Under the pieces are notes generated by a model. It did no database searches. It was not told the DNA's origin and saw nothing but the letters and a program-made list of their open reading frames with translations. The translations under genes and the position numbers were made by a program. From Fusobacteriota bacterium (lineage in GTDB: Bacteria; Bacillota; TC1), in contig WTXA01000004.1 of assembly GCA_009773805.1 (NCBI GenBank), positions 295-64,294 on the forward strand: DNA of 64,000 nucleotides. Direction: 5' to 3'. Positions 23,479 through 54,919 of this stretch are shown piece by piece. Position 1 is the stretch's first letter. Each line of letters begins with the position of its first letter.

Positions 23479-24459
23479 TTATACCTTCTTCCTTTTGTTC
23501 TTAAAGAAGCTACTGGAGATTATGTCTTCCCTAATATTTCCTTGTGAGAAAATATTACCTGTATTCATGTTGAAAATTTCAACTCTAGCAGGAGAATGAA
23601 TGTTTAGATCCATTTTGTAGTATGTTCTATCTGCTTCTAAATACAGCTCCCTAAATGATCTGCCATAGTCTTTTGAATATTCTGTTACCAATTTTGGTAA
23701 AATTCTGGTAATTTCTTCATCACTCTTACACTTAACCCAGTATTGTGATCTGCCACCATATAGTAGTGAATCGTTTATCTTGCCCATCGCTTCATCATCA
23801 TCTAAAGTAACTGGAGCTACCAAGGCAAAACCTCTTGCAAATTCCAAGGCATATTCTATGCTTTGGTCTTCTTGCATCATGATTTTATGTAGTGTTTGTT
23901 CCAAAATACGAGCAGCTACTTGAACTGCAGCTACTATTGAAGTATTGTTATGAACCAGCAAATATATATTATCAGGACTCATATTACATTCTTCTGCTAT
24001 TTTCATAGCAATTTCATCATCTGGAACTCTTTGTCCTTGTACTCCAAGTACAACTAATTCTGCTTCAGTATCCCTGTAACTATCAGGAATATCAAAACAA
24101 TAATCTTCCTTATTTCTAGCTACAGCCCTTCCAGGGCCTGAACCAATCATACCATCCCCAATAGGATAAGAGGCAATTTGGCTGTACCTCAGAGCCAAAA
24201 TCGGCTCTGAAGTCATAACCTCAACAGCTAAACAGCTGTGTCCATCTTCAAGTACATAGTCTCTATAGGTTACAGTTCCAAGATCAGCCATATTTATTTC
24301 AGTAAATAGTCTAGCTGCCTCAAAGCTGCCTTTAGCCTCAATTCCCATGTCGATTATATTTGCTCCGCATGGTAATTTATAGCTTTTACATGATAATGCT
24401 TCATAATTATCTAAAATGAATTGTAATTTTCTTTTTACGTTGTTGTTTAAACTAATCAT
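23479..24459 (-). CDS. Methenyltetrahydromethanopterin cyclohydrolase (Mch, PF02289)-like protein, paralog 2
   Basis: About 320 aa. Blocks recalled from archaeal Mch: GANIIDMGIEAKGSFEAARLF, GSGPGRA, IVAAVQVAARILEQTLHK, AMGKINDSLLYGG, and a C-terminal ...NIREDIISSSF. Collinear with the ORF at 27985-28947. Confidence 0.7.
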   Translation of the reverse strand: MISLNNNVKRKLQFILDNYEALSCKSYKLPCGANIIDMGIEAKGSFEAARLFTEINMADLGTVTYRDYVLEDGHSCLAVEVMTSEPILALRYSQIASYPIGDGMIGSGPGRAVARNKEDYCFDIPDSYRDTEAELVVLGVQGQRVPDDEIAMKIAEECNMSPDNIYLLVHNNTSIVAAVQVAARILEQTLHKIMMQEDQSIEYALEFARGFALVAPVTLDDDEAMGKINDSLLYGGRSQYWVKCKSDEEITRILPKLVTEYSKDYGRSFRELYLEADRTYYKMDLNIHSPARVEIFNMNTGNIFSQGNIREDIISSSFFKNKRKKV

Positions 24460-24466
24460 GTTTCAC

Positions 24467-25993
24467 CTATATTTCGTTAATTAATTCTTGAATTCTGTTT
24501 AAGAACCTTGCTGCTGGAGCACCATTAATCACTCTGTGATCATGTGTCAAGCTAAATGACATTAGATTCTTTTTATAGAATCCACCATCTCTTACAGCTA
24601 ATTCTCTTCTGATAGCACCTAGTCCTAGAATAGCACTTTCACCAATATTTAATACAGGAGTGAAATATTTGATACCAAACATTCCTAGGTTAGTCATGGT
24701 AAATGATCCATAACTTAAATCGTTTTCAGTCAATTTACCTGCTTTAGCTTTTTCAGCCAACTGTGCTAGTTCAGTAGCTACAGCAGAATAGAATTTCTTG
24801 TCGGCATTTTTAATGTTAGGGACAAAAAGTCCACCTTCTACATCAATTGCTATACCAATATTTACATCAACAAGTTCTTTGAACATATTGTCTTCTATAA
24901 CTGTTCTCATGATTGGATACTCTTTTAAAGCTTTTGCAATTAGATTTACCAATACTGAAGTGTAACTTAATTTTACTCCCATAGCAGCATAATCTGTTTT
25001 GTTAGCCTGATAGAATTCAACTAGATTATCAACATCCATATCCATAGTTATAGTAGTTTGGGCAGTTTCTTGTAGACTCTTATACATTCCTGACGCAATG
25101 GCTTTTTCCATAGCTGTCATTTTTCTGTTAATAGGTGTTGGCGCTAAAGCAACATTTTTAAGAAGTCCTAGATCATAGGCTTTCTTAATATCTTCTCTAG
25201 TTACCATATTATAGTAACCAGTTCCCTTGATTCTTGTAGCATTTACTCCAAGCTCATCAGCTAGTTTTTGTGCCTTTGTTGTTAGAACTGAAGAACCATA
25301 AGAGTTTGAATCAGCAGCAACTTCTTCATTAACTTCTACAACTTCCACTACTGGTTTATTGTTTTCTACAACTTCCATTTCAGAAGGAGAACATTGTGAA
25401 AAAACTTCACCTTCAGCTGCAACTTCACCTTCTCCGATTTTAGCGATTGTCTTACCACAGTTAACTGTAGCACCTTCTTCTACTAAAGGATAAAAAGGTC
25501 CAGCTACTGGAGCCATTAATTCATTTGTAAGTTTTTCTATTGCTATTTCTGCGATTACATCGCCTTCTTCAACCATATCCCCTGCAGAGAAGAACCATGT
25601 TGAAACAGTTCCTTCTTCCATATTAGCACCATATCTTGGCATTACTACAATTGTTGCATCACTTGAGGATACTACATCTGCAACTTGCTTTTGATCTTGT
25701 ACAATTTCAGGTGATTTTTCTTGTACAGTAGGTGTCGACTCTTCAATATCTTCACCTTGTTGTCCTATATAGGCTATTGGAGTTCCACAATCATATGTTT
25801 CACCCTCAGCACCTACTAATTTTAATATTATTCCATCTTCAGGTGCAAGAAGCTCATTACTTAATTTTTCGATAGCTATTTCAGCTATCGCCTGGCCTTT
25901 TGTTACAGATTCTCCCTCTTCAACAAACCAGGTAGCAATAGTCCCTTCATCCATGTTAGCCCCATATCTAGGCATTTCGATTACAGTAGACAT
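24467..25993 (-). CDS. 2-oxoacid/acetoin dehydrogenase E2 (dihydrolipoamide acyltransferase) with two lipoyl domains
   Basis: Two N-terminal lipoyl-type domains (MPRYGANM[DE]EGT...AEIAIEKL[ST]NEL). E1/E3-binding domain (KAQKLADELGVNATRIKGTG). Catalytic domain with DHRVINGAPAARFL. Confidence 0.88.
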   Translation of the reverse strand: MSTVIEMPRYGANMDEGTIATWFVEEGESVTKGQAIAEIAIEKLSNELLAPEDGIILKLVGAEGETYDCGTPIAYIGQQGEDIEESTPTVQEKSPEIVQDQKQVADVVSSSDATIVVMPRYGANMEEGTVSTWFFSAGDMVEEGDVIAEIAIEKLTNELMAPVAGPFYPLVEEGATVNCGKTIAKIGEGEVAAEGEVFSQCSPSEMEVVENNKPVVEVVEVNEEVAADSNSYGSSVLTTKAQKLADELGVNATRIKGTGYYNMVTREDIKKAYDLGLLKNVALAPTPINRKMTAMEKAIASGMYKSLQETAQTTITMDMDVDNLVEFYQANKTDYAAMGVKLSYTSVLVNLIAKALKEYPIMRTVIEDNMFKELVDVNIGIAIDVEGGLFVPNIKNADKKFYSAVATELAQLAEKAKAGKLTENDLSYGSFTMTNLGMFGIKYFTPVLNIGESAILGLGAIRRELAVRDGGFYKKNLMSFSLTHDHRVINGAPAARFLNRIQELINEI

Positions 25994-26005
25994 ACAATTT
26001 CCTCC

Positions 26006-26983
26006 TTAATATGCCATTACTTCATTACAAGCGGTAATTACATCCTCATAATGTGGCAAGACATAATCTTCCATTCCTGGAGCAAAAGGTACTGGTGTAT
26101 CAAGAGATGTAACCCTCTTAATTGGAGCTTTTAGATATTCGAATAATTCTTCACCTAACATAGCACCAATTTCAGCACCATAACCCATTACTTTAGGACC
26201 TTCTTGAACTACAACTAGTCTACCAGTCTTAGCAACTGACTTCTTAATTGTTTCTTTATCTAATGGGAAAATTGTTCTTGGATTAATAATTTCAACAGAA
26301 ACTCCTTTAGCAGCCATTTCGTCAGCTGCTTTATGAGCAAATTTCAACATACTCATTGCCGCAACTATTGTGATGTCTGCTCCTTCTCTTGCTACATGTG
26401 CCTCATAAAGTGGTATTTCATATAGTTCTTCAGGAACTTCACCTTTAACATTATATAAATGTTTGTGTTCTAGGAAAACAACTGGATTATTATTTCTAAT
26501 TGAAGCAACTAAAAGTCCTTTTGCTTCATATGGAGTAGCAGGAGCAACAATAACAAGTCCTGGTATATTCATCAACCATGGCTCGATACATTGTGAGTGA
26601 TGATAGGCACATCTGATTCCACCACCAGTTACAGCTCTTACTACCATTTGAGCGCTAGCTTCACCTTGATACATATAGTTTAATTTTGCTGCATTATTTA
26701 CTAACTGGTCATAACATACTGTTATAAAGTCAGCGAACATTAATTCAGCTACTGGTCTTAGACCGCAAACGCTTGCACCACATGATAAACCTGTAATTGC
26801 AGATTCTGACAAAGCAGTATCAAATGCTCTATCTGGCCATCTATCCCAAATTCCACTTGTTATTCCAAAGTCGCCACCCATTTTGGCAACGTCTTCTCCT
26901 AATATAAAAACGCTATCATCACGTTCCATTTCTTGCATCATAGCTTCGTTAAGAGCCTTGCTAAATGATATAGTTCTAGCCAT
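26006..26983 (-). CDS. Thiamine-diphosphate-dependent dehydrogenase E1 beta subunit (AcoB/PdhB-like)
   Basis: Typical E1-beta length and blocks (FILGEDV...GG, DTALSESAI, transketolase C-terminal-like domain). 1-nt overlap with the E1 alpha gene. Confidence 0.88.
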   Translation of the reverse strand: MARTISFSKALNEAMMQEMERDDSVFILGEDVAKMGGDFGITSGIWDRWPDRAFDTALSESAITGLSCGASVCGLRPVAELMFADFITVCYDQLVNNAAKLNYMYQGEASAQMVVRAVTGGGIRCAYHHSQCIEPWLMNIPGLVIVAPATPYEAKGLLVASIRNNNPVVFLEHKHLYNVKGEVPEELYEIPLYEAHVAREGADITIVAAMSMLKFAHKAADEMAAKGVSVEIINPRTIFPLDKETIKKSVAKTGRLVVVQEGPKVMGYGAEIGAMLGEELFEYLKAPIKRVTSLDTPVPFAPGMEDYVLPHYEDVITACNEVMAY

Positions 26984-27969
26984 TATCTTCCCTCCACTTC
27001 TCTGTCAGTGTATACATATTTAACCGCATCTTCTGGTTTTGGAACTGGAGATTCTAGTGAGAATTTTACATACTCAGCTATTTCAGTTTCTACTCTTTCA
27101 GAAATCGCTTCAATTTCAGCATCGCTAACACCATGATTTTCTTGTAATCTTTGTTTAGTTATTTTTAATGGATCTTTTTCTTTCCAAGCTTCTAATTCAC
27201 CATCAGGTCTGTAAGCTGCTGGGTCTCCTGAGAAGTGACCTTGCCACCTATAGGACATCATTTCAATCAATGTAGGTCCTTCACCACGTCTTGCTCTATC
27301 AACAGCTTGTTGGGTAACTTCAATAACTTCCTCAATGTCGTTTCCATCAATTGTCATACTAGGAACTTCGTAACCTAGGCCCCAAGTTGAAAGTTGTTTT
27401 TGTGGATGTGCTTCTGTATAGTGAGTTGAAATTGCATATTGATTATTAATCAATACATAAATTAAAGGTAACTTCCATGTTGCTGACATATTTAAACTCT
27501 CGTGACATGTACCTTCACCTAGTGTTCCATCTCCCATAAATACAACTGTTACATCATCATTTTTTCTGTAAACAGAATTGAAAGCAGTTCCTAAAGCAGT
27601 AACAACAGTTGACCCTTGGATTCCATTGAAGCCCATGTTTCTTACTGATAAATCGTGAACGTGCATACTTCCACCTCTACCTCCATTGATACCTGTAGCT
27701 TTAGCGAAAATCTCTGACATACATCTTTTTCTTTCCTCAGGTTTGCTTGATAACACGATAGCACCGTGTCCTCTGTGATCTGGGAACTTGTAGTCTGTAT
27801 CTTTCAAAACATCGACAACTCCAGCTTGCGCTGCTTCTTGTCCAATGCTCAAATGTATAAATCCTGGTATAGTTCCATTTTTTGCATATACTTCAACTTC
27901 TTCTTCGAAGCGACGTATAAGCAACATGTCCTCGTAAACTTTTAATAAATGTTCTTTACTTAATGACAT
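26983..27969 (-). CDS. Thiamine-diphosphate-dependent dehydrogenase E1 alpha subunit (AcoA/PdhA-like)
   Basis: IRRFEE, GFIHLSIGQEA, and ThDP motif GDGTLGEG...NNQYAIS. Confidence 0.88.
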   Translation of the reverse strand: MSLSKEHLLKVYEDMLLIRRFEEEVEVYAKNGTIPGFIHLSIGQEAAQAGVVDVLKDTDYKFPDHRGHGAIVLSSKPEERKRCMSEIFAKATGINGGRGGSMHVHDLSVRNMGFNGIQGSTVVTALGTAFNSVYRKNDDVTVVFMGDGTLGEGTCHESLNMSATWKLPLIYVLINNQYAISTHYTEAHPQKQLSTWGLGYEVPSMTIDGNDIEEVIEVTQQAVDRARRGEGPTLIEMMSYRWQGHFSGDPAAYRPDGELEAWKEKDPLKITKQRLQENHGVSDAEIEAISERVETEIAEYVKFSLESPVPKPEDAVKYVYTDREVEGR

Positions 27970-27984
27970 TATTTGTCCTCCTTT

Positions 27985-28947
27985 CTAATTTAAGAAGCTT
28001 TTTCTTATAACTTCTTTATTTATCTCACCAGCTGTAAAGCATTTTCCGGATCTTATACTTTGCAACTGAATACGAGCTATTGAATGAAAATCATGGTCTA
28101 CTTTATAGAAGTCACAACCACAATCTTCGAACACTTTTGCAAAAGGTTCTGGATAATATGGTGATGAAGTGCTTGATACTAGTTGATGAACAACTTTTTG
28201 ACATTCTACATCATCTGCATCTACCCAAAATTCTGTGGTACCACCATAAAGGATGGCATCATTGATTCTGCCCATAGCTTTTATTTCGTCATTAACTAGT
28301 GGTGCAATCGGAGCAATACCTCTACAATTAACTACTTTACTAACTTCAAAACCTTTTTCATGCATTTTATGACAAACTTGTTCTAATAACCTAGCAGCTA
28401 CTTGAACACTACCAACTATGCAAGCACTAGGTGCTAGCAGAAGATATACATCCTTAACATCAACTTTACAAGCTGCTGCTACTTCTTTGGCAATTTCATC
28501 AGATGGATATTTGATGTCCTGGATACAAAGAACCACTTCATCGTTTCTATCTCTGTATGGAGTCATATCAAGATACATATCTGTAGGTACTACAGCTTGT
28601 GCTCTTGCTGGTCCTGATCCAATTGTTGCGAAGTTACCTTCACCTAATTGCCAACCGGCAATTTGTGAGCCTAAACATGTAATTAATGGTTCGGTTACAA
28701 ATAGTTCTACAGCGCTAAATGATATTTCTTCATCAAGTTTCCAAGAACCTAATTGAACAGTACCAGTGTTACCCATTGTAACTTTAGTGAACATAATCCC
28801 CGCTTCATAGGAGCCTTTAGCCTCTAGTCCACAGTCGATTAGCGTCGCGCCACAGTCCATTTTAACAACCTTAACGCCAATTTTATCGCAATCTTCAATC
28901 ATTTCTCTGACTACTTTCATAGCCTCTTTGTTAATACTTAAAGCCAT
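27985..28947 (-). CDS. Methenyltetrahydromethanopterin cyclohydrolase (Mch, PF02289)-like protein, paralog 1
   Basis: GATLIDCGLEAKGSYEAGIMF, GSGPARA, VYLLLAPSACIVGSVQVAARLLEQVCHKMHEKGF, IAPIAP, AMGRINDAILYGG, DFYKVD, EINKEVIRKSF. By recall this closely mirrors archaeal Mch sequences along the whole length. Confidence 0.75.
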   Translation of the reverse strand: MALSINKEAMKVVREMIEDCDKIGVKVVKMDCGATLIDCGLEAKGSYEAGIMFTKVTMGNTGTVQLGSWKLDEEISFSAVELFVTEPLITCLGSQIAGWQLGEGNFATIGSGPARAQAVVPTDMYLDMTPYRDRNDEVVLCIQDIKYPSDEIAKEVAAACKVDVKDVYLLLAPSACIVGSVQVAARLLEQVCHKMHEKGFEVSKVVNCRGIAPIAPLVNDEIKAMGRINDAILYGGTTEFWVDADDVECQKVVHQLVSSTSSPYYPEPFAKVFEDCGCDFYKVDHDFHSIARIQLQSIRSGKCFTAGEINKEVIRKSFLN

Positions 28948-41364: not shown

Positions 41365-41511
41365 ATGACAAATAAACATATAATTACATTAGCTAAACCT
41401 TTGCTTCAAGAAACTAAGGAAACAGGAGGCTGTGGGAATTGCCAATCAGCGTGCCAGTCAGCTTGCAAGACTTCTTGCACTGTAGCAAATCAATTGTGCA
41501 TTAATGAATAA
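41365..41511 (+). CDS. SCIFF (six cysteines in forty-five residues) ribosomal peptide precursor
   Basis: 48-aa ORF absent from the track: MTNKHIITLAKPLLQETKETGGCGNCQSACQSACKTSCTVANQLCINE. AGGAGGG RBS 7 nt upstream. Matches the SCIFF (TIGR03973) pattern GGCGxCQxSCQSACKTSCTVxNQ. Confidence 0.9.
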   Translation: MTNKHIITLAKPLLQETKETGGCGNCQSACQSACKTSCTVANQLCINE

Positions 41512-41543: not shown

Positions 41544-41557
41544 ACTTGGAGGAAAAT

Positions 41558-42925
41558 ATGAAAGACATTAAAATAATAGAAAAGAACGGGATGAATATCA
41601 TCCTCGATGTAAATAGTGGATCCATCCATATTTTTGATGAGTTAGGCAAAAATACTCTACTAAAATATATCAACAATGAAGATATTAAAGATAATGATGA
41701 ATTAAATGTCTTGAAAGAAATCAATATCCTCATAAATGAAGGTAGCCTACTTTCTAAAGATAGTGGTGAATTACCTAAAGTAGTAAATAAAAGTCTGAAG
41801 TCAATATGTTTGAATGTAGCACATATCTGCAATCTAGCTTGTCCTTATTGCTTTGCATCAGGTGGCAGCTATAAGGGCAATGAAGCCTTAATGAGTCTTG
41901 AAGTTGGTAAGAAAGCCATCGATTTCCTGTTTGAAAACAGCAAAGGTCGCAAAATTGTCGAAGTGGATTTTTTCGGTGGTGAACCACTACTAAATTTCCA
42001 ACTAATCAAGGATGTTGTTGCTTATGGTGAAGAAAAAGCCAAGGAGTTAAATAAATCCATCAAGTGGTCAATGACAACTAATGGTGTACTTTTAGATGAA
42101 AAAGTTTGTAAGTTTTTGAAGGATCATAATGTAGGTACAGTCTTAAGTATAGATGGTCGCAAAGAAATTCATGATAAATATAGATATTTCAAGGATAAGT
42201 CAGGCAGTTATGACAAGATTGTTAAAAACTATCAAAGATTCAAGGAATATAGTGATGACTATGTAGCTAGAGGTACTTATACTAAAGGTAATCTTGATTT
42301 CTATAATGATATTGAAGTCTTAAAGTCACTTGGTTTTGAACATTTATCAATGGAACCCGTCATAGGAGGAGACTTAACCTATGATGATCTTGAAACTATA
42401 AGAGAAAGTTACGATATATTAGCAGATAAATATTTAAAATGGCTATCTGAAGATAAACCTTTGGACTTTTTTCATTTTAATATTAATTTAAAGGGTGGTC
42501 CTTGTATTTATAAGCGTATTACAGCTTGTGGTGCAGGTTTTGAATATCTGGCAATAACACCTATTGGTGATATCTTTCCATGTCATCAATTAATAGAAAA
42601 TAAAGACTATCTCCTAGGGAACATTATGATAGAAACCTACAAGGATGAACTTAGTAAAGTTTTCCAAGATATAAATATATATACTAAGGAAAAGTGTAGC
42701 AATTGTTGGGCTCGGTTCTATTGTAGTGGTGGTTGTCATAGTAACAACTTAAAATATGGTGGAGACTTAAGTAATCCCGATGATTTAAGTTGTGAATTAC
42801 AAAAAATAAGATTAGAATCAGCAATTTATGTTCAAGCTCAAAAATTACTTAGAGAATATTCTAAAAATAACTTTAAAACAAGTGATGAAATCACTAAGGA
42901 AAAGATAATAGATATGTTAAAATAA
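41558..42925 (+). CDS. SCIFF radical SAM/SPASM thioether-forming maturase
   Basis: CNLACPYC radical SAM cluster motif. C-terminal SPASM cysteines (CGAG...C, CSNCWARFYCSGGC). Start set to the ATG after GGAGG; the track ORF starts at an upstream TTG. Confidence 0.88.
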   Translation: MKDIKIIEKNGMNIILDVNSGSIHIFDELGKNTLLKYINNEDIKDNDELNVLKEINILINEGSLLSKDSGELPKVVNKSLKSICLNVAHICNLACPYCFASGGSYKGNEALMSLEVGKKAIDFLFENSKGRKIVEVDFFGGEPLLNFQLIKDVVAYGEEKAKELNKSIKWSMTTNGVLLDEKVCKFLKDHNVGTVLSIDGRKEIHDKYRYFKDKSGSYDKIVKNYQRFKEYSDDYVARGTYTKGNLDFYNDIEVLKSLGFEHLSMEPVIGGDLTYDDLETIRESYDILADKYLKWLSEDKPLDFFHFNINLKGGPCIYKRITACGAGFEYLAITPIGDIFPCHQLIENKDYLLGNIMIETYKDELSKVFQDINIYTKEKCSNCWARFYCSGGCHSNNLKYGGDLSNPDDLSCELQKIRLESAIYVQAQKLLREYSKNNFKTSDEITKEKIIDMLK

Positions 42926-42995
42926 TAGTATTAAGTATACAATTAATATTATATAGTAATTGATAAAATTTAATAAGAAGATTAGGAGTGATAAT

Positions 42996-43910
42996 ATGCT
43001 AGATGTAACAATTATAGGAGCAGGTCCTGCTGGAATGACAGCTGCCCTTTATGCTTTAAGAAGTGGTCTTAATGTTTGTGTAATGGAACAAGGAGCACCT
43101 GGTGGACAATTATTAAAAACAGAAAAAATAGATAATTATCCAGGATTTGCTGATGGGGTTCTTGGTATGGAGCTTGCTACCAATATGTTTACGCAAATAA
43201 GTTCTTTTGCTAATTTTTCCCTGATTAATGAAACTGCTAAAAAAATAAGAAGAAAGCCTAACGGTTTTACAATTGATATTTCAACAGGCACAGTTGAAAC
43301 TAAGTCTGTTATTATAGCCACAGGAGGATATCCAAGAACTTTAGATATACCTGGTGAAAGTGAGTATTCTGGTAAAGGTGTTTCTTATTGTGCAATATGT
43401 GATGGTTTCTTCTTTAAAGATAAGATTGTTTCTGTTATTGGTGGCGGTAATACAGCTCTTGAAGATGCGGTGTACCTTGCTAGTATTGCCAAGGAAGTAT
43501 ATTTAATTCATAGAAGAAAAGCTTTTAGAGGTAGTAAAATATTAGTTGATAGATTGAAGGAACATAAAAATGTACATTTAGTTTTGGAGAAAGTTCCTGT
43601 GGAAATCAAAGGAGAAACAAAGGTTTCTGAAATAGTTATTAAGGATACTGAAACAGAAGAAATTACTAGTCTTTTTGTAAACGGAGTTTTCTTGGCAATA
43701 GGTCAAATAATGAATAGTGATTTTGTAAAGGATATATTAGCAATAGATGATACAGGTCATATAGTTGTTGATGAAAAGATGGAATCTGTTATTCCCGGTC
43801 TATTTGCTTGTGGAGATATTATTTCCAAGGATTTGAGACAGGTATCTACAGCTGTTGGTGATGGTGCTATCGCCGGACAAATGGCTTATGAATATTTAAG
43901 CAAACTGTAA
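42996..43910 (+). CDS. trxB: Thioredoxin-disulfide reductase
   Basis: GAGPAG FAD motif, redox-active CAIC, GGGNTA NADPH motif. Start trimmed to MLDVTIIGAG after AGGAG. Confidence 0.9.
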   Translation: MLDVTIIGAGPAGMTAALYALRSGLNVCVMEQGAPGGQLLKTEKIDNYPGFADGVLGMELATNMFTQISSFANFSLINETAKKIRRKPNGFTIDISTGTVETKSVIIATGGYPRTLDIPGESEYSGKGVSYCAICDGFFFKDKIVSVIGGGNTALEDAVYLASIAKEVYLIHRRKAFRGSKILVDRLKEHKNVHLVLEKVPVEIKGETKVSEIVIKDTETEEITSLFVNGVFLAIGQIMNSDFVKDILAIDDTGHIVVDEKMESVIPGLFACGDIISKDLRQVSTAVGDGAIAGQMAYEYLSKL

Positions 43911-45180: not shown

Positions 45181-47139
45181 TTAATAAGACAAAGCTCTAT
45201 TTCCTATAGTATTCCAAGCCGTATTGAATGCTGAATTATTTATATATGCATTTTTTTTACCAGTCCAAGGGTCATTATAATAAAACCCATCATTATTATA
45301 ACCTGTTATTACAACAGCATGAAGATAAAAACCACTTAATCTAGCCCAAACTAAAACAGGTTTGCCTTGATTGATACTATTTTTTATCCCAATGGTTCCA
45401 CTACCTGTCAAATTAACTGCTGATCCTGCATATTTTTCCATTATATTCATTAATGCAGGAGGAAAAATGGTATAACCATATGAATTAAAAGGAGATCCAA
45501 CAAACCCTAAATCCGGATTAGTTTGATGATAAGGTATTTCATTAGCAAGTTGAATCTTCGTCACATTTACCCCAAGATAATTTAATATCATAGCTAGAGA
45601 AGTCACCTCACAACCGGTTGGCAATTCTGGTCTTTGACTTATTATAGGTACATTTAAAGGGTTTGTTAAAACAATATAACTTCTCAAATTATCAGGTGCC
45701 GCTGCTCCCTTTTCCACCAAAACTACTTTCATTGCTTCTATTCTATACCCATATCCTGACGTGCCTGCATTTTCTCCGTTTTTTGCCCAGCCCATCCAAC
45801 CTATATTTTGCACATGAACACTGTAATATGTTGGCTGATATTGCTCCTTCAAGACCAATATTTATTCTCTCTACTCTTTTGTTAAGCTCTCCACTTTCTG
45901 TGCCATTAACCTTCCAGTCCTGCCATCCACTTCCTTCTATATATGATCTATATTTTATGCTGCTACCAGCCATGTCTCCTTCAGTCATTTTTGTTCCAAG
46001 TTTTAACATCCAGGCTTCTAGTCTTAAAGACATACCTGTTATTCCTGATATTGCTCCATCTGTTTTCCAGGGTTGATATCCATAGGATTGTACAGAACTC
46101 TTATATGCCACATTAACTTTACTTAAATCTACATATGCTCCAGTAGTAGCTCCTGGTGCCGCTGCTCCCTTAGTTACCAATACAACTTTCATTGCTTCTA
46201 TCCTATAGTCGTATCCTGATGTACCAGCGTTTTCTCCATTTTTAGCCCAGCCCATCCAGCCTATATTTTGCACATGAACACTGTAATATACATCATAGTT
46301 GGCTGCTATTGGTCCTTCTAGACTTATGTTAATTGTCTCTACTCTTTTGTTAAGCTCTCCACTTTCTGTGCCATTAACCTTCCAGTCTTGCCATCCACTT
46401 CCTTCAACATATGAACGATATTTTATATTGCTACCTGCCAAATCTCCACTGTTCATCCCTGTTCCAAGTTTCAACATCCAGGCTTCCATTCTTAAGGACA
46501 TACCTGTTATTCCTGATATTGCTCCATCTATTTTCCAGGGTTGATATCCATAGGATTGTACAGAACTCTTATATGCCACATTAACTTTACTTAAATCTAC
46601 ATATGCTCCAGTATTAGCTCCTGGTGCTGCTGCTCCCTTGGTTACCAATACAACTTTCATTGCTTCTATCCTATAATCGTATCCTGATGTACCAGCGTTT
46701 TCTCCATTTTTAGCCCATCCCATCCAACCTATATCTTGCACATGAACACTGTAATATACATCATATTTGGCTGCTATTGCTCCTTCAAGACTTATGTTAA
46801 TTGTCTCTACTCTTTTGTTAAGCTCTCCACTTTGTGTGCCATTAACCTTCCAGTCCTGCCATCCACTTCCTTCTATATATGATCTATATTTTATGCTACT
46901 TCCAGCCATGTCTCCTTCAGTCACTTTTGTACCAAGTTTCAACATGACATACCTGTTATTCCTGCAATCTCTCCATCACTAACCCATGGCAAATAACCTT
47001 TTGTTTGCATATAGTTACTATAAATTACACCATCGTTGCTTAAATCGACTATAGCTGCAACAGGTTTACTAACAATAATTGGCAATATCAATATTCCAAT
47101 TAGCACTATCAATCTGTAGATTATTTTTTTATTTCTCAT
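45181..47139 (-). pseudogene. Secreted ChW-repeat protein with C-terminal C39-like (YvpB-type) cysteine peptidase domain, disrupted by two frameshifting deletions
   Basis: Three overlapping ORFs in different frames. (a) Signal peptide MRNKKIIYRLIVLIGILILPIIVSKPVAA. (b) ChW repeats (YSVHVQNIGWMGWAKNGENAGTSGYDYRIEAMKVVL). (c) Peptidase_C39_2-like domain (PTGCEVTSLAMIL...LHAVVITGY). Compared with the sister repeat units, 19 nt are missing at 46945/46946 and 8 nt at 45829/45830. Confidence 0.7.
45745..46945. repeat. Tandem 468-bp (156-codon) repeat units, about 2.6 copies, each encoding three ChW modules
   Basis: Near-identical protein blocks recur every 156 aa. Spurious plus-strand ORFs at 46299 and 46767 are exactly 468 nt apart with near-identical sequence. 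Confidence 0.85.
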
Positions 47140-50714: not shown

Positions 50715-52616
50715 TTATTTTTTCTCACTATTCTCTGTTACTAACATCTCAATAACCTCGGAAAGTGGCTTAGAACCAAGATCTCCAACAGATCTTTTTC
50801 TTACAGCAACATGACTATTTGCAGTTTCATTATCACCCACAACAAAAGTATAAGGAATCTTTTGCATTTGGCTTTCTCTTATCCTATAGCCAAGTTTTTC
50901 GTTTCTTGCATCCACATTTACTCTAATACCAGATCTTTTTAATTCTGCAGCAACCTCATATGCATATTCATTATGAACTTCTGCTACAGGAATAATATTA
51001 ACTTGCATTGGAGCCAGCCATAAAGGAAAGGCACCTGCATAATGTTCTATTAAGATTCCAATGAATCTCTCAACAGATCCAAAAATTGCTCTATGAATCA
51101 TTGCAGGTCTGTGTTTAGCTCCATCTTCACCAATATAGTTAAGATCGAATTTTTCTGGCATTTGGAAATCTAACTGTATAGTTCCACACTGCCAAGTTCT
51201 TCCAATAGAATCCTCTAGATGGAAATCAATCTTCGGTCCATAAAAAGCTCCATCACCTTCGTTTAATTCATAGTCTATTTTCAAGTCATCTAAGGCATCC
51301 TTCAACGCCTGAGTAGCTTGATCCCACATTTCTACAGAACCCATAGCTTTTTCTGGCCTAGTTGAAAGTTCAACATTGTATTTAAAGTCAAAAGTATTAT
51401 ATACTTCATCGACCATTTCAATTACTTTTTTAATCTCATCTCTAATTTGATCATAGAGCATGAAAATATGAGCATCATCTTGTGTGAAAGCTCTAACTCT
51501 CATCAAGCCATGTAGAACCCCTGATTTTTCATGACGATGAACTAAGCCCATTTCAGCGTATCTAATAGGAAGTTCCCTATAGCTATGTTGGTTGTGTCTA
51601 TAGACCAACATACATCCAGGACAGTTCATCGGTTTAATTGCATAATCTAGTTCATCTATTTTTGTAAAATACATGTTTTCCTTATAATGATCCCAATGTC
51701 CTGATTGTTCCCACAATTTTCTATTAAGAATAATAGGAGTCTTAATTTCTTCGTATTCCCACTTGTTATACAAGCCACGCATAAAGTCTTCAAGCTGATT
51801 CCTAAGAACCATACCTTTTGGAAGAAAAATTGGAAAACCAGGTCCCTCTTCTTCTATAGTGAATAACTCAAGTTCAGCTCCAAGTTTTCTGTGATCTCTT
51901 TTTTTAGCTTCTTCAAGTCTATGTAAATATGCCTCTAAATCCTTTTTATTAGGAAATGAAGTTGCATATATTCTTTGTAGCATCTTATTCTTTTCGCTAC
52001 CTCTCCAATAGGCACCTGCCAAAGTCATCAACTTATAGGCTTTTAAATAACCAGTAGAAGGCACATGAGGTCCACGACATAAATCTAAGAAACCACCTTG
52101 TTCATAAACACTGATTTCTTCACCAGCTGGTAAGTCTTGGATTAACTCGACCTTATACTTCTCCCCTTTTGCCCCAAAATATTCCAACGCATCTTCTTTC
52201 ACAAGTACTTTTCTTACAAATGGTGTATTTCTTTTAACTATATCAGCTATTTTGCTTTCTATCTTTTCTAGGTCTTCTGGTGTAAAAACATGTTCAGTAT
52301 CAAAATCATAGTAAAAACCATCTTTGATAACAGGTCCAATACCAAATTTTACATCAGGGAATAATTCCCCAACCGCTTCGGCCATAATGTGAGCACTACT
52401 ATGTCTATATGTATCAAGACCTTCTTCACTATCTAATGTGAATATCTCGACAATATCTCCATCATTTGCTTTCGTGCTCATATCGACCATTTTGCCGTTA
52501 ACCTTAGCTACTATGGCTTCTTTTTTCAATCTATTGCTAATTTTGCTTGCTACATCAAATAAGTTGCTATCTGAATCTACGTCTAATACCTTGCCATCTT
52601 TTAATTTAATTTCCAT
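50715..52616 (-). CDS. thrS: Threonyl-tRNA synthetase
   Basis: TGS N-domain, class II core, anticodon-binding C-domain, about 633 aa. Start set to MEIKLKDG after AAGGAGG. Confidence 0.95.
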   Translation of the reverse strand: MEIKLKDGKVLDVDSDSNLFDVASKISNRLKKEAIVAKVNGKMVDMSTKANDGDIVEIFTLDSEEGLDTYRHSSAHIMAEAVGELFPDVKFGIGPVIKDGFYYDFDTEHVFTPEDLEKIESKIADIVKRNTPFVRKVLVKEDALEYFGAKGEKYKVELIQDLPAGEEISVYEQGGFLDLCRGPHVPSTGYLKAYKLMTLAGAYWRGSEKNKMLQRIYATSFPNKKDLEAYLHRLEEAKKRDHRKLGAELELFTIEEEGPGFPIFLPKGMVLRNQLEDFMRGLYNKWEYEEIKTPIILNRKLWEQSGHWDHYKENMYFTKIDELDYAIKPMNCPGCMLVYRHNQHSYRELPIRYAEMGLVHRHEKSGVLHGLMRVRAFTQDDAHIFMLYDQIRDEIKKVIEMVDEVYNTFDFKYNVELSTRPEKAMGSVEMWDQATQALKDALDDLKIDYELNEGDGAFYGPKIDFHLEDSIGRTWQCGTIQLDFQMPEKFDLNYIGEDGAKHRPAMIHRAIFGSVERFIGILIEHYAGAFPLWLAPMQVNIIPVAEVHNEYAYEVAAELKRSGIRVNVDARNEKLGYRIRESQMQKIPYTFVVGDNETANSHVAVRKRSVGDLGSKPLSEVIEMLVTENSEKK

Positions 52617-52629
52617 TTTTTCCTCCTTG

Positions 52630-52864
52630 AATATAAAAAGTACTATCATCACAAGAGACGATAGTACCGTGGTTCCACTCTATTTCTAAAAACAAATGTT
52701 TTTACTTTACCTCTTAACGCAAGGTTGACGTGTCCCTTAATAAATTCAGGTCCCTCTCCTAGGTGGTTTTCTTTTAGTCTTTCTTAGGAAGTTTCCAGCT
52801 ACCTTCCCTCTCTGTTAAGATTATCTTAAAATACTCGTCCTAGTCATCGATTTTATCAATACTT
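52630..52864 (-). promoter_or_regulatory. T-box leader (Thr specifier) controlling thrS
   Basis: On the minus strand: stem I elements (AGAGAG, GGTAGCTGGAAAC), candidate specifier region GAAAACCACCTAGG (ACC = Thr), conserved T-box sequence AGAGTGGAACCACGGTA (about 52664-52683), then a terminator GTACTATCGTC...GATGATAGTAC + TTTTT (52635-52668). Confidence 0.8.
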
Positions 52865-52870
52865 ACACTA

Positions 52871-52899
52871 ATTATCTAAAAATTATCCCTATTTGTCAA
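52871..52899 (-). promoter_or_regulatory. Sigma-A promoter for the thrS leader
   Basis: The minus strand reads TTGACA (52894-52899), 17-nt spacer, GATAAT (52871-52876). Confidence 0.6.
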
Positions 52900-52902
52900 T
52901 GA

Positions 52903-53355
52903 TTATTTTAAAGAAGCAACAAATTCATAAACCTCTCCTGCATGGCCTTCGACCTTGACATTTCTCCATTCTTTGATAATTTCTCCTTTTTCATCTAATA
53001 AAAAGGTGCTTCTTTCAACACCTAAATATTCTTTGCCATAGTTTTTCTTAAGTTTAAGTACCTCAAAACACTCACATAAGATACTTTCTTTGTCACTTAA
53101 TAACAATACATCCAACTCTTGTTCTTCTATAAATTTTTGATGTGATTTAATACTATCTCTACTTACCCCGATAAGAACAACATTTAACTTTTCAAAAGCC
53201 AACCTGGCTAATGTAAACTCTTTAGCTTCTTTGGTTCATCCTGGTGTATTATCTTTAGGATAAAAAAACAAGACAACTTGCTTGCCAACAAAATCCTTTA
53301 GACTATACCCATTACCATCAGTAGTAGCTAATTTTATATTTAAACAATTCATCAT
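52903..53355 (-). CDS. Bcp/PrxQ-type peroxiredoxin with in-frame TGA (probable selenocysteine) at the peroxidatic position
   Basis: Reading through the TGA at 53236-53238 gives a 150-aa protein: MMNCLNIKLATTDGNGYSLKDFVGKQVVLFFYPKDNTPG-U-TKEAKEF... This is collinear with E. coli Bcp (FYPKAMTPGCTVQA). GAGGGAG RBS upstream. The track shows only the C-terminal 99 aa from an internal TTG. Confidence 0.7.
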
Positions 53356-53476
53356 TTATTCATCTCCCTCATTAATCAAAATCAATATATGATATCAATA
53401 TAGAATATCTATATACATATTAGCATAAAATATTGTAAACTTTAACTAATAAATAAAGAAACGAGGTTCAACATTT

Positions 53477-54919
53477 ATGAACTTACAAGACTTAACCAAA
53501 GAAGATATATTTAAATATTTTAATGAAATATCAAAAATCTCAAGATGCTCTCATAGAGAAGATAAAATTGCCGATTATTTAGAACAGTTCGCGAAAACTC
53601 ATAAGTTAGTCTATCTAAGAGATAAAGAAAATAATCTCATAATAAAAAGAGATATTGGTAGCAAGCCAACTGTTGCCTTGCAAGCTCATGTAGATATGGT
53701 GTGTATAAAAACTAATGATTCAATCCATGATTTTTCTAAAGATTCAATATCTCTACAACTAAACAAAAGTCTCTTGTCAGCCAAAAATACCACCCTAGGA
53801 GCTGACAACGGGATTGGGGTAGCCTATATGCTTGCACTACTGGCAGATGCGAATTATGAGGGCCCTAATTTAGAATGTATCTTCACTACTAATGAAGAAG
53901 ATGGAATGACTGGAGCAAACAACCTGGACATATCAAACCTTAATTCTCAATACTTATTAAATCTAGATAGTGAAGAAGAAGGAAAACTATATGTTTCTAG
54001 TGCAGGTGGGGTTGTGTGTAATTTACTTATTCCTATCAAATATAAGTTAAGAGATGGCTATATATATAGTGTTAAAATCTTTGGTTTAAAGGGTGGACAT
54101 TCTGGACTTGAAATTGATAAAAAAAGAGGCAATGCCATTAAACAAGCAGCAAGAATATTGAACTACCTTCAAGAAGAATCAATAGCCTTTAGATTGATTG
54201 AAATTGATGGGGGTAAAAAACATAATGCAATACCTGAAGAAATTGCTATGAAAATATTATTAAAAAATAAGGACCAGTTTGAAGCTTTAGATGCCTTGAT
54301 AAATAATTGTCAAAATATTTTCCAAAAAGAGCTAAGGCACCAGGATCCTGATGTAAAAGTAACCTTAACCTATTTAAGTAAAGGTATGATCAATACCCTT
54401 AGTAAAAGTACTACTATAACCTTAATAGGTGTCTTAAACCTACTTCCTGACGGTGTCATCAAAATGAGTGAGGAAATTCCCCAATTAGTAGAAACCTCAG
54501 CTAATGTGGGAAAAGTTATCCAAGAAAAAGATATACTAAAAATAACAACTTCATTAAGAAGTTCTAAGGATGAAAATCTAGACTCATTAATCGAGATGTT
54601 TAATCAGTTAAAGACTGCTTTTAACCTTCAATTTACAACTGAGTATTCATATCCTGGTTGGGCTTATGACAAAAACTCAGTATTAAAGGAAATTGCAAAA
54701 GAAGTCTACAATAATTTATTCAATGAAAAACTAGAGGAAATTGCAATACATGCTGGATTGGAATGTGGCTTTTTTAAAAACAAAAAAGCTGATTTAGATA
54801 TAATCAGCTTTGGGCCTAATATAAATAAGATTCATACAATAGATGAATCCGTTGATATTAATTCAGTAAGAAAAGTATATGCATTCCTTAATACCTTATT
54901 AAATAGTTTAGATAGTTAA
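53477..54919 (+). CDS. pepD: Aminoacyl-histidine (Xaa-His) dipeptidase, M20C
   Basis: QAHVDMVC, GADNGIGVA, TTNEEDGMTGA, about 480 aa. Confidence 0.88.
   Translation: MNLQDLTKEDIFKYFNEISKISRCSHREDKIADYLEQFAKTHKLVYLRDKENNLIIKRDIGSKPTVALQAHVDMVCIKTNDSIHDFSKDSISLQLNKSLLSAKNTTLGADNGIGVAYMLALLADANYEGPNLECIFTTNEEDGMTGANNLDISNLNSQYLLNLDSEEEGKLYVSSAGGVVCNLLIPIKYKLRDGYIYSVKIFGLKGGHSGLEIDKKRGNAIKQAARILNYLQEESIAFRLIEIDGGKKHNAIPEEIAMKILLKNKDQFEALDALINNCQNIFQKELRHQDPDVKVTLTYLSKGMINTLSKSTTITLIGVLNLLPDGVIKMSEEIPQLVETSANVGKVIQEKDILKITTSLRSSKDENLDSLIEMFNQLKTAFNLQFTTEYSYPGWAYDKNSVLKEIAKEVYNNLFNEKLEEIAIHAGLECGFFKNKKADLDIISFGPNINKIHTIDESVDINSVRKVYAFLNTLLNSLDS

Follow-up and report, generated by a model that had tools for sequence, protein, structure and literature searches.

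A candidate UGA-encoded selenocysteine at the peroxidatic position of a Bcp/PrxQ-type peroxiredoxin from an uncultured Clostridia-like lineage

The stretch of DNA analysed here, hereafter called the window, is 64,000 nucleotides of contig WTXA01000004.1 (GenBank assembly GCA_009773805.1). On its minus strand, next to thrS, lies a peroxiredoxin gene, here called prx, the frame of which is divided by a single in-frame TGA in the context FFYPKDNTPG-TGA-TKEAKEF (minus-strand read), a putative selenocysteine (Sec) codon. The coding sequence (CDS) read from the ATG at 53355 has 150 codons, with a second ATG at 53352 and a TAA stop at 52905..52903, and its read-through product is MMNCLNIKLATTDGNGYSLKDFVGKQVVLFFYPKDNTPG-U-TKEAKEF... 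The second ATG is the start common to all relatives, and a Shine-Dalgarno motif of the GGAG type lies 11 nt 5' of it; counted from there, the conserved product has 149 aa and Sec is residue 39. The original prediction had proposed a Sec-containing peroxiredoxin at this place, and its coordinates, ATG, TGA, ribosome-binding site and hairpin offsets were all correct on re-reading of the sequence. In a search of the six frames of the 64 kb, prx was the sole TGA-split open frame located outside another long open reading frame (ORF); it does not, therefore, stand among numerous frames interrupted by chance. A near-consensus promoter (TTGACA-17-GATAAT, 11/12) at 52871-52899(-) begins directly after the prx stop codon, and is followed by the T-box leader of thrS at 52651-52856(-) (Rfam RF00230, 121.8 bits). 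Because this promoter starts right after the stop codon, prx and thrS seem to be transcribed separately. The features of the locus are listed in Table 1.

Table 1. Coordinates of prx, its associated signals and the nearby trxB gene in the window
Feature	Position	Strand	Basis
Sec-containing Bcp/PrxQ peroxiredoxin CDS (putative), full length	52903..53355	-	read-through translation, family matches, conserved start
In-frame TGA, presumed Sec codon at the peroxidatic (C_P) position	53236..53238	-	codon 40 counted from 53355
Shine-Dalgarno GAGGGAG	53364..53370	-	GGAG-type motif at equal spacing in all relatives
Weak sigma-70-like promoter upstream of prx, TAGATA-16-TATATT, 9/12	53384..53411	-	consensus match only
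Apical SECIS-like hairpin AGCCA-GGU-UGGCU, 5 bp, loop GGN at 53204..53202	53197..53209	-	conserved pairing, frozen codons
Possible lower extension of the SECIS stem by C53213-G53193 and A53212-U53194, beneath a 2x2 internal loop	53193..53213	-	9/11 sequences
Thioredoxin-disulfide reductase TrxB, presumed electron supply via thioredoxin	42960..43910	+	TIGR01292, 358.5 bits (cutoff 343.45)

The program-made ORF list contained only the 99-aa TTG-started tail of prx (52903..53202). As the original prediction stated, the gene has been missed by annotation, and this holds for the public calls in general, which consist of fragments of 38-44 aa and 99-102 aa or carry a 'W' under genetic code 4. The NCBI entry 'MAG: peroxiredoxin Q/BCP [Fusobacteria bacterium]', for example, is a truncated call with 99% identity to the 99-aa call of the window. 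At the related loci, the N-terminal ORF was mostly called as 38-44 aa (59 aa in L086/L087, none in L083), together with the 99-102-aa piece. The full-length 149-aa public calls read 'PGWT', and their source is short AT-rich contigs called under code 4; in six of them (P0001-P0006, ENA short contigs) the Sec codon is turned into Trp. Such code-4 calling is an artefact that hides selenoprotein genes as seemingly intact, catalytically dead proteins. For the whole clade, the annotation in NCBI, ENA and Logan can thus be corrected from a 99-102-aa fragment with an orphan 38-44-aa peptide (59 aa at one locus), or from a protein with a false catalytic Trp, to a 149-aa product that is very probably a selenoenzyme.

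Family searches were run on the product with Cys in place of the TGA. The placement in the Bcp/PrxQ class, already claimed in the original prediction, was borne out. The Pfam domain AhpC-TSA (PF00578) matched residues 6-127 (103.7 bits, cutoff 26, E=8.7e-30). The best NCBIfam models were PrxQ (126 bits) and Bcp (PRK09437, 110 bits), with AhpC and Tpx at 33.6 and 24; the PrxQ and Bcp scores are under the equivalog cutoffs (260 and 140) and show membership at the level of the class, not of an equivalog. The best PDB matches were all bacterioferritin comigratory proteins (BCP) of the Burkholderia, Xylella and Xanthomonas type (E = 5e-39 to 1e-37); they are collinear with the product, and their catalytic Cys aligns to codon 40 of prx. 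Residues P33, T37, U40 and R115 (in ERSTF) were invariant in all 14 sequences (14/14) of the prx clade described below, giving the motif PxxxTxxU, the active site of which is completed by R115. Both canonical resolving-Cys positions are non-Cys in all clade members (Lys45 at +5 for the E. coli type, Ile76 for the Xanthomonas type), although atypical 2-Cys members have a Cys at +5 or, in the Xanthomonas type, in helix alpha-3. The absence of a resolving Cys is compatible with 1-Cys-type BCP variants, and the class membership stands. Furthermore, a Cys at position 96 was present in 14/14 clade sequences, and at this position six outgroups have Ala (five) or Ser (one).

We fetched related loci (n=13), which together with the window gave 12 distinct CDSs; the hairpin alignment comprised 11 sequences. 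In 13/13 related loci, prx is located between an M20 peptidase gene and the T-box-led thrS. At the DNA level, TGA was found at the same codon in 11 of the 12 distinct CDSs including that of the window. When 10 relatives read as DNA were taken together with 5 inferred from the 'PGWT' code-4 proteins, TGA was present in 15/16 distinct orthologs; the equivalence of W and TGA was confirmed on the DNA of P0006/L092. The TGA-bearing relatives, from independent samples and assemblers, are about 70-91% identical in amino acids and 75-90% in DNA. Variable alignment columns at the first, second and third codon positions numbered 18/12/36 of 38 on the upstream side of the TGA and 48/26/100 of 110 on the downstream side, and neither half of prx had frameshifts or extra stops among the relatives. 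Because substitution is biased to the third position on both sides and the Shine-Dalgarno motif and ATG are conserved, the pattern of change indicates that both halves of prx are translated. Cys occupies the TGA position as TGT in one ortholog nested among the TGA forms (L091) and as TGC or TGT in 157/159 distant homolog loci, in agreement with the Sec/Cys replacement invoked in the original prediction. The alignment with orthologs proposed there as a check, with the TGA kept in nearly all of them, is contrary to a nonsense mutation or a sequence error.

Two hairpins downstream of the UGA had been put forward in the original prediction as candidates for the Sec insertion sequence (SECIS). The first, GCUAA-N10-UUAGC, was rejected: in 6-7 of 11 sequences, two of the five pairs cannot form, so that it is not conserved in most relatives, and it was no better than shuffles. 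The second, AGCC-AGGUU-GGCU, is invariant in the relatives, coincides with frozen synonymous sites and fits the published geometry. It occupies +29..+41 from the U of the UGA, its loop is separated from the UGA by 31 nt, and it may alternatively be read as a 4-bp stem with the loop A-GGU-U. The five apical pairs were formed in 11/11 sequences and the two lower pairs (C-G and A-U) in 9/11. The sole variable base of the 13-nt hairpin is the third base of the loop (U/C/G/A); an A->G change giving G-U in 2 sequences was the only exception noted for the stem.

In the 12 distinct CDSs, the amino acid is invariant at 33 codons of 4- or 6-fold degeneracy, and of these only codons 50 (GCC), 51 (AGG) and 53 (GCT) are frozen. 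These three form the stem of the hairpin, and the chance of three falling within four codons is p = 0.0016. GCC (14%) and AGG (16.5%) count among the minor codons of this genome. The amino acid at codon 52 varies (Leu/Met/Val), and its second and third bases stay UG. Nowhere else in the CDS are there stretches of unchanged nucleotides as long as the two hairpin arms. The motif was found in 0/159 distant homolog loci, and any hairpin passing a simplified test modelled on the bacterial SECIS (bSECIS) was found in 5/79 tested distant loci; a second control set, from metagenome contigs, consisted of homologs of <=55% identity among the matches listed. The minimum free energy (MFE) of control 22-mers was -1.8 +/- 1.9 kcal/mol, compared with -7.4 in the window. 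Because of the frozen synonymous codons, the invariant arms, the kept pairing and the absence from distant loci, the hairpin is, to judge from these comparisons, under selection at the RNA level. In the published bSECIS consensus (PMC13188914), an upper stem of 4-16 bp closes a loop of 3-9 nt, which conforms to N1-G-[G|U]-N-N2 and has G in its first two positions; 16-37 nt separate the UGA from the loop, and the MFE is <= -7.5 kcal/mol. The geometry of the prx hairpin is within this consensus, either as a 5-bp stem with a GGN loop or as 4 bp with A-GG-U-U, and with the 31-nt spacing. Taken together, the locus very probably constitutes a single gene, the product of which is a Bcp/PrxQ-class peroxidase of 149/150 residues with the thioredoxin fold and a UGA-encoded Sec as the peroxidatic residue.

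Several results weigh against this interpretation. The genes selA, selB, selC and selD were found neither in the 64 kb of the window nor in the flanks that were fetched; ARAGORN detected no tRNA-Sec in the window or the 13 related loci, and NCBIfam annotation of about 40 window ORFs gave no selA, selB or selD. The MFE of the local 22-mer, from -5.0 to -7.8 kcal/mol across the relatives, is borderline with respect to the published threshold. The 49-mer from the UGA folds with -9.0 kcal/mol, a value that includes an unrelated 5' hairpin, and its fold energy was not significant against shuffles (z = -0.77). There were no compensatory changes in the 5-bp apical stem among the 11 sequences, and shuffle controls were uninformative; the one change on both sides in the tested 9-pair helix concerns pair 29-43, in the poorly paired lower extension. 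Since the stem does not vary, covariation is silent on the SECIS. No SECIS model of Rfam matched at gathering thresholds, nor with E<=10 on 52800-53500, where only the thrS T-box and noise were obtained. For the 63-nt alignment, RNAalifold preferred a longer but less conserved helix of columns 9-16/38-45, which we rejected (0 compensatory pairs, broken in up to 3/11 sequences). Finally, the Cys-bearing L091 keeps the hairpin, and thus the hairpin alone is no proof of a current SECIS function.

One possible explanation of the interrupted frame is a pseudogene with a nonsense mutation in a Cys-type PrxQ gene, or a sequencing or assembly error in such a gene; the truncation of prx by gene callers and the close ortholog with TGT, one base apart from TGA, would agree with this. 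However, TGA is at the same codon in 15 distinct orthologs, substitutions in both halves are those of an intact coding frame, and the Cys form branches within the TGA clade. A systematic error shared by all assemblies is implausible given the independent platforms. The conservation of the TGA and the coding signature on both sides therefore exclude a pseudogene or sequencing error, to which we assign hardly any probability. An alternative could be that TGA is a sense codon throughout the genome (Trp in code 4 or Gly in code 25), as in the six public protein calls that translate it as W and as might be considered for an AT-rich genome (33% GC in the window). However, TGA terminates 4 of the 50 long ORFs of the window, with further stops 2-21 codons later, and every Trp codon in the long ORFs is TGG (121/121); thus, the standard code is used. 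No other gene in the 64 kb requires read-through of TGA, by established Prx chemistry a peroxidatic Trp or Gly would be incompatible with catalysis, and the ThrS marker points to Clostridia, not to a lineage known for recoding. Genome-wide reassignment accordingly has virtually no probability.

Read-through of the UGA without Sec machinery, by a near-cognate Cys- or Trp-tRNA and perhaps helped by the hairpin, with a Cys/Trp enzyme made at a low level, or the synthesis of two separate polypeptides, would account for selABCD not being found in the window and flanks, for a hairpin that is small and energetically unremarkable, and for its persistence in the Cys ortholog. However, the hairpin fits the geometry and loop motif of the SelB-type consensus, and prx belongs to a known selenoprotein family with repeated Cys-to-Sec events. 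Carboxydothermus, among the nearest named (distant) relatives by ThrS, has SelD and several selenoproteins (PMC1794560). As for two polypeptides, the internal start of the C-terminal part differs between sequences, being TTG in the window and, three codons before it, ATG in others, and no Shine-Dalgarno motif goes with it. We consider these explanations very improbable, and it is unlikely that the lineage is devoid of selABCD and decodes the UGA of prx by a non-canonical route. The conserved GC-rich hairpin might also have another role in the RNA, such as in mRNA stability, ribosome pausing for folding or regulation, with its SECIS-like distance from the UGA being coincidental; its retention in L091 and the lack of covariation are in line with this. 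However, the hairpin is confined to the TGA-carrying clade and was found at none of the Cys-type or other homolog loci (0/159), and L091 is on a terminal branch, so that the change to its Cys took place inside the clade. Genes recently converted from Sec to Cys have been documented to retain SECIS remnants (PMC1794560 Fig. 4). We consider a different RNA role likewise very improbable.

If the UGA of prx is decoded as Sec, decoding would depend on SelB, with AGCCA-GGN-UGGCU inside the CDS acting as the bacterial SECIS. The hairpin would recruit SelB-GTP-Sec-tRNA(Sec), and Sec would be inserted in place of termination. In the folded protein, the selenolate in the P33/T37/U40/R115 pocket may reduce peroxide and be converted to the selenenic acid, which would be recycled by a thiol partner, presumably thioredoxin with TrxB; the TrxB gene is located about 9 kb from prx. 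Because both canonical resolving-Cys positions are absent, recycling may be either 1-Cys-like or via the clade-specific Cys96.

In the neighbour-joining tree, the TGA sequences formed one clade, and L091 (TGT) was nested in it as the sister of the TGA-bearing L086, with 81% identity. L091 (ENA ERZ28614959 scaffold_198204, CDS 234-683) is the sole Cys ortholog, and it carries AGCCAGGCUGGCU with a longer stem (7 bp, -7.8 kcal/mol). The nesting of this Cys form among TGA sequences, with the hairpin kept, is most readily explained by a reversion from Sec to Cys that left a remnant SECIS. All of the closest outgroups (about 50-60% identity) have Cys, and some have the Xanthomonas-type resolving Cys; the clade thus looks like the product of one Cys-to-Sec event.

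Two other TGA-bearing PrxQ sequences were observed, one from the cultured isolate Clostridium argentinense CDC 2741 (L029, NZ_AYSO01000002.1, TGA at 2672) and one from a JGI metagenome contig (L144, Ga0209145_1060870). Both share the FFYPKDNTPG-TGA-T context with prx in full-length PrxQ ORFs. However, each is a single sequence, 45-52% identical to prx, with different downstream RNA and no GCCAGGNUGGC, and they probably represent independent Cys-to-Sec events. In the 2006 genome survey, 5 Cys-to-Sec events were counted among 12 Prx selenoproteins (PMC1794560 Table 1), and the unrelated RNA downstream of the TGA in L029 and L144 agrees with the repeated conversions reported for the Prx family.

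Catalogues of prokaryotic selenoproteomes, by Zhang, Gladyshev and co-workers, contain a family named 'Prx', assigned to COG1225 (Bcp)/PF00578, with the motif TxxU (PMC1088965, PMC9312934, PMC1794560, PMC13188914). By the counts of these sources, the Sargasso Sea data contain 43 Prx sequences and the genome survey of 2006 contains 12; WP_011365628.1 is a catalogue representative. By domain and motif, prx is a member of this 'Prx, COG1225 (Bcp), TxxU' family, known since the early 2000s. It shares with the catalogued members the Pfam domain, the COG1225/Bcp class (by NCBIfam and PDB matches), Sec at the peroxidatic position in P-x3-T-x2-U, widespread Cys homologs, a SECIS (in prx a candidate) that lies within the coding sequence and starts its loop with G, and a sporadic distribution suggesting repeated Cys-to-Sec conversion. 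Unlike them, set against the catalogue by description, the prx clade is unannotated and belongs to an uncultured Clostridia-like lineage, the SECIS-like hairpin of prx is very short (5 bp), and the clade is without both canonical resolving Cys and has its own Cys96. A literature search pairing PrxQ or bacterioferritin comigratory protein with selenocysteine gave nothing specific; the family goes under the name 'Prx, COG1225'.

The original prediction had compared prx with PrxU of Eubacterium (Peptoclostridium) acidaminophilum, which is said to contain Sec, reportedly from work of Sohling and co-workers in 2001. In both, Sec is at the peroxidatic site of a thioredoxin-fold peroxidase of an anaerobic Gram-positive bacterium. 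However, PrxU is of a different Prx subfamily, and the present protein is Bcp/PrxQ-like with 150 aa; the PrxU model (NF040737, peroxi_PrxU) gave 33.5 bits against a cutoff of 270, with residues 18-86 matching positions 59-126 of 233. PrxU is thus not the fitting comparator, which is the 'Prx, COG1225/Bcp, TxxU' family. Among proteins of solved structure, the BCPs of Xanthomonas campestris (3gkk, 5iiz and others) and Xylella fastidiosa (3ixr), as well as 5enu, are collinear over the full length, with the P, T, C_P and R residues aligned, and differ from the present protein in having Cys in place of Sec. Ile76 aligns to chain position 84 ('NFCAKQ') of the Xanthomonas BCP, where Cys84 is the resolving Cys, and Lys45 stands where the E. 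coli-type BCP has the +5 Cys.

The SECIS elements of E. coli fdhF (...GCAGGUCUGC...) and Moorella thermoacetica fdhA (...UGCCGGUCUGGCA...) have a short GC-rich apical stem and a small loop with GGU/GU, and AGCCAGGUUGGCU of prx resembles both. Unlike in these two, no bulged U is evident in prx, the loop lies farther from the UGA (31 nt), and no Rfam model matched.

The general picture of selenoproteins is unchanged by this gene. Within it, the TGA clade with one nested TGT revertant and its remnant SECIS provides a clean example of Sec/Cys turnover; the candidate SECIS is unusually small and sharply delimited and could serve studies of SelB binding, and an uncultured Clostridia-like lineage is marked as a probable user of selenium. 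A more far-reaching possibility is that the clade is a recently evolved Sec-PrxQ unlike those catalogued, in which both canonical resolving Cys were lost, Cys96 was gained and might form a selenenylsulfide with Sec40, the SECIS is a minimal one of 13 nt and at least one reversion to Cys kept it. We consider this improbable; if true, the clade with its SECIS-retaining Cys reversion would be a natural Sec/Cys exchange series.

As to the organism, ThrS of the window (50715-52652, -) is 100% identical to a protein under the NCBI name 'Fusobacteria bacterium'. The named organisms closest to it are Clostridia, with 64-72% identity (Zhaonella 69%, Desulfitibacter 65%, Thermincola and Carboxydothermus 64%), and the gene order radA-ispD-ispF-cysS-mrnC-thyX-rlmB-sigH is Bacillota-like. 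On the basis of these relatives and this gene order, the NCBI label is probably wrong. More distant members of the lineage, with ThrS 76% and 72% identical, have no prx beside thrS. In one of them (L093, ENA ERZ25074341 contig_2, 888 kb; ThrS 76%), the prx and M20 genes are absent beside thrS, and a gene for FdhD, a formate dehydrogenase accessory protein, is located at 507-1256, after sigH. This is a weak hint that formate dehydrogenase, often a selenoenzyme, occurs in the wider lineage.

Other features of the window were also observed. Two Mch-like genes (TIGR03120; 234 and 330 bits, cutoff 228.8) are located at 23479-24459(-) and 27985-28947(-), with a 2-oxoacid dehydrogenase E1alpha/E1beta/E2 set (24467-27969) between them and an SDR gene, a BMP-family ABC transporter (31021-35658) and an amidohydrolase (35765-37162) adjoining. 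Homologs of Mch (methenyltetrahydromethanopterin-cyclohydrolase-like) are unexpected in a Clostridia-like genome, and the set that they flank may be a catabolic cluster using an Mch-fold ring-opening hydrolase. At 45181-46945(-) there are two overlapping ORFs of 225 and 400 aa on the same strand with no NCBIfam match; at that place, a 99.8%-identical ENA contig (L081 16064-20300) has a gene of 1535 aa with ChW-repeat, glucosaminidase and amidase_3 domains. Comparison by blastn revealed internal repeats in this region and collinearity that stops at window position 45695, and the likely cause is that repeats of a cell-wall hydrolase gene were collapsed or that the gene was assembled differently. 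A precursor of SCIFF (six-Cys-in-forty-five), 48 aa long and with the sequence ...GGCGNCQSACQSACKTSCTVANQLCINE, is encoded at 41365-41511(+), and the radical-SAM maturase of SCIFF directly downstream at 41546-42925(+) (TIGR03974, 498.7 bits). Finally, an otherwise empty gap of 658 nt contains an ORF of 96 aa (MVKHIVLFKF...) at 38539-38829(+), the product of which presumably is, as judged by eye, a protein like those of the Dabb/stress-responsive alpha-beta-barrel type.

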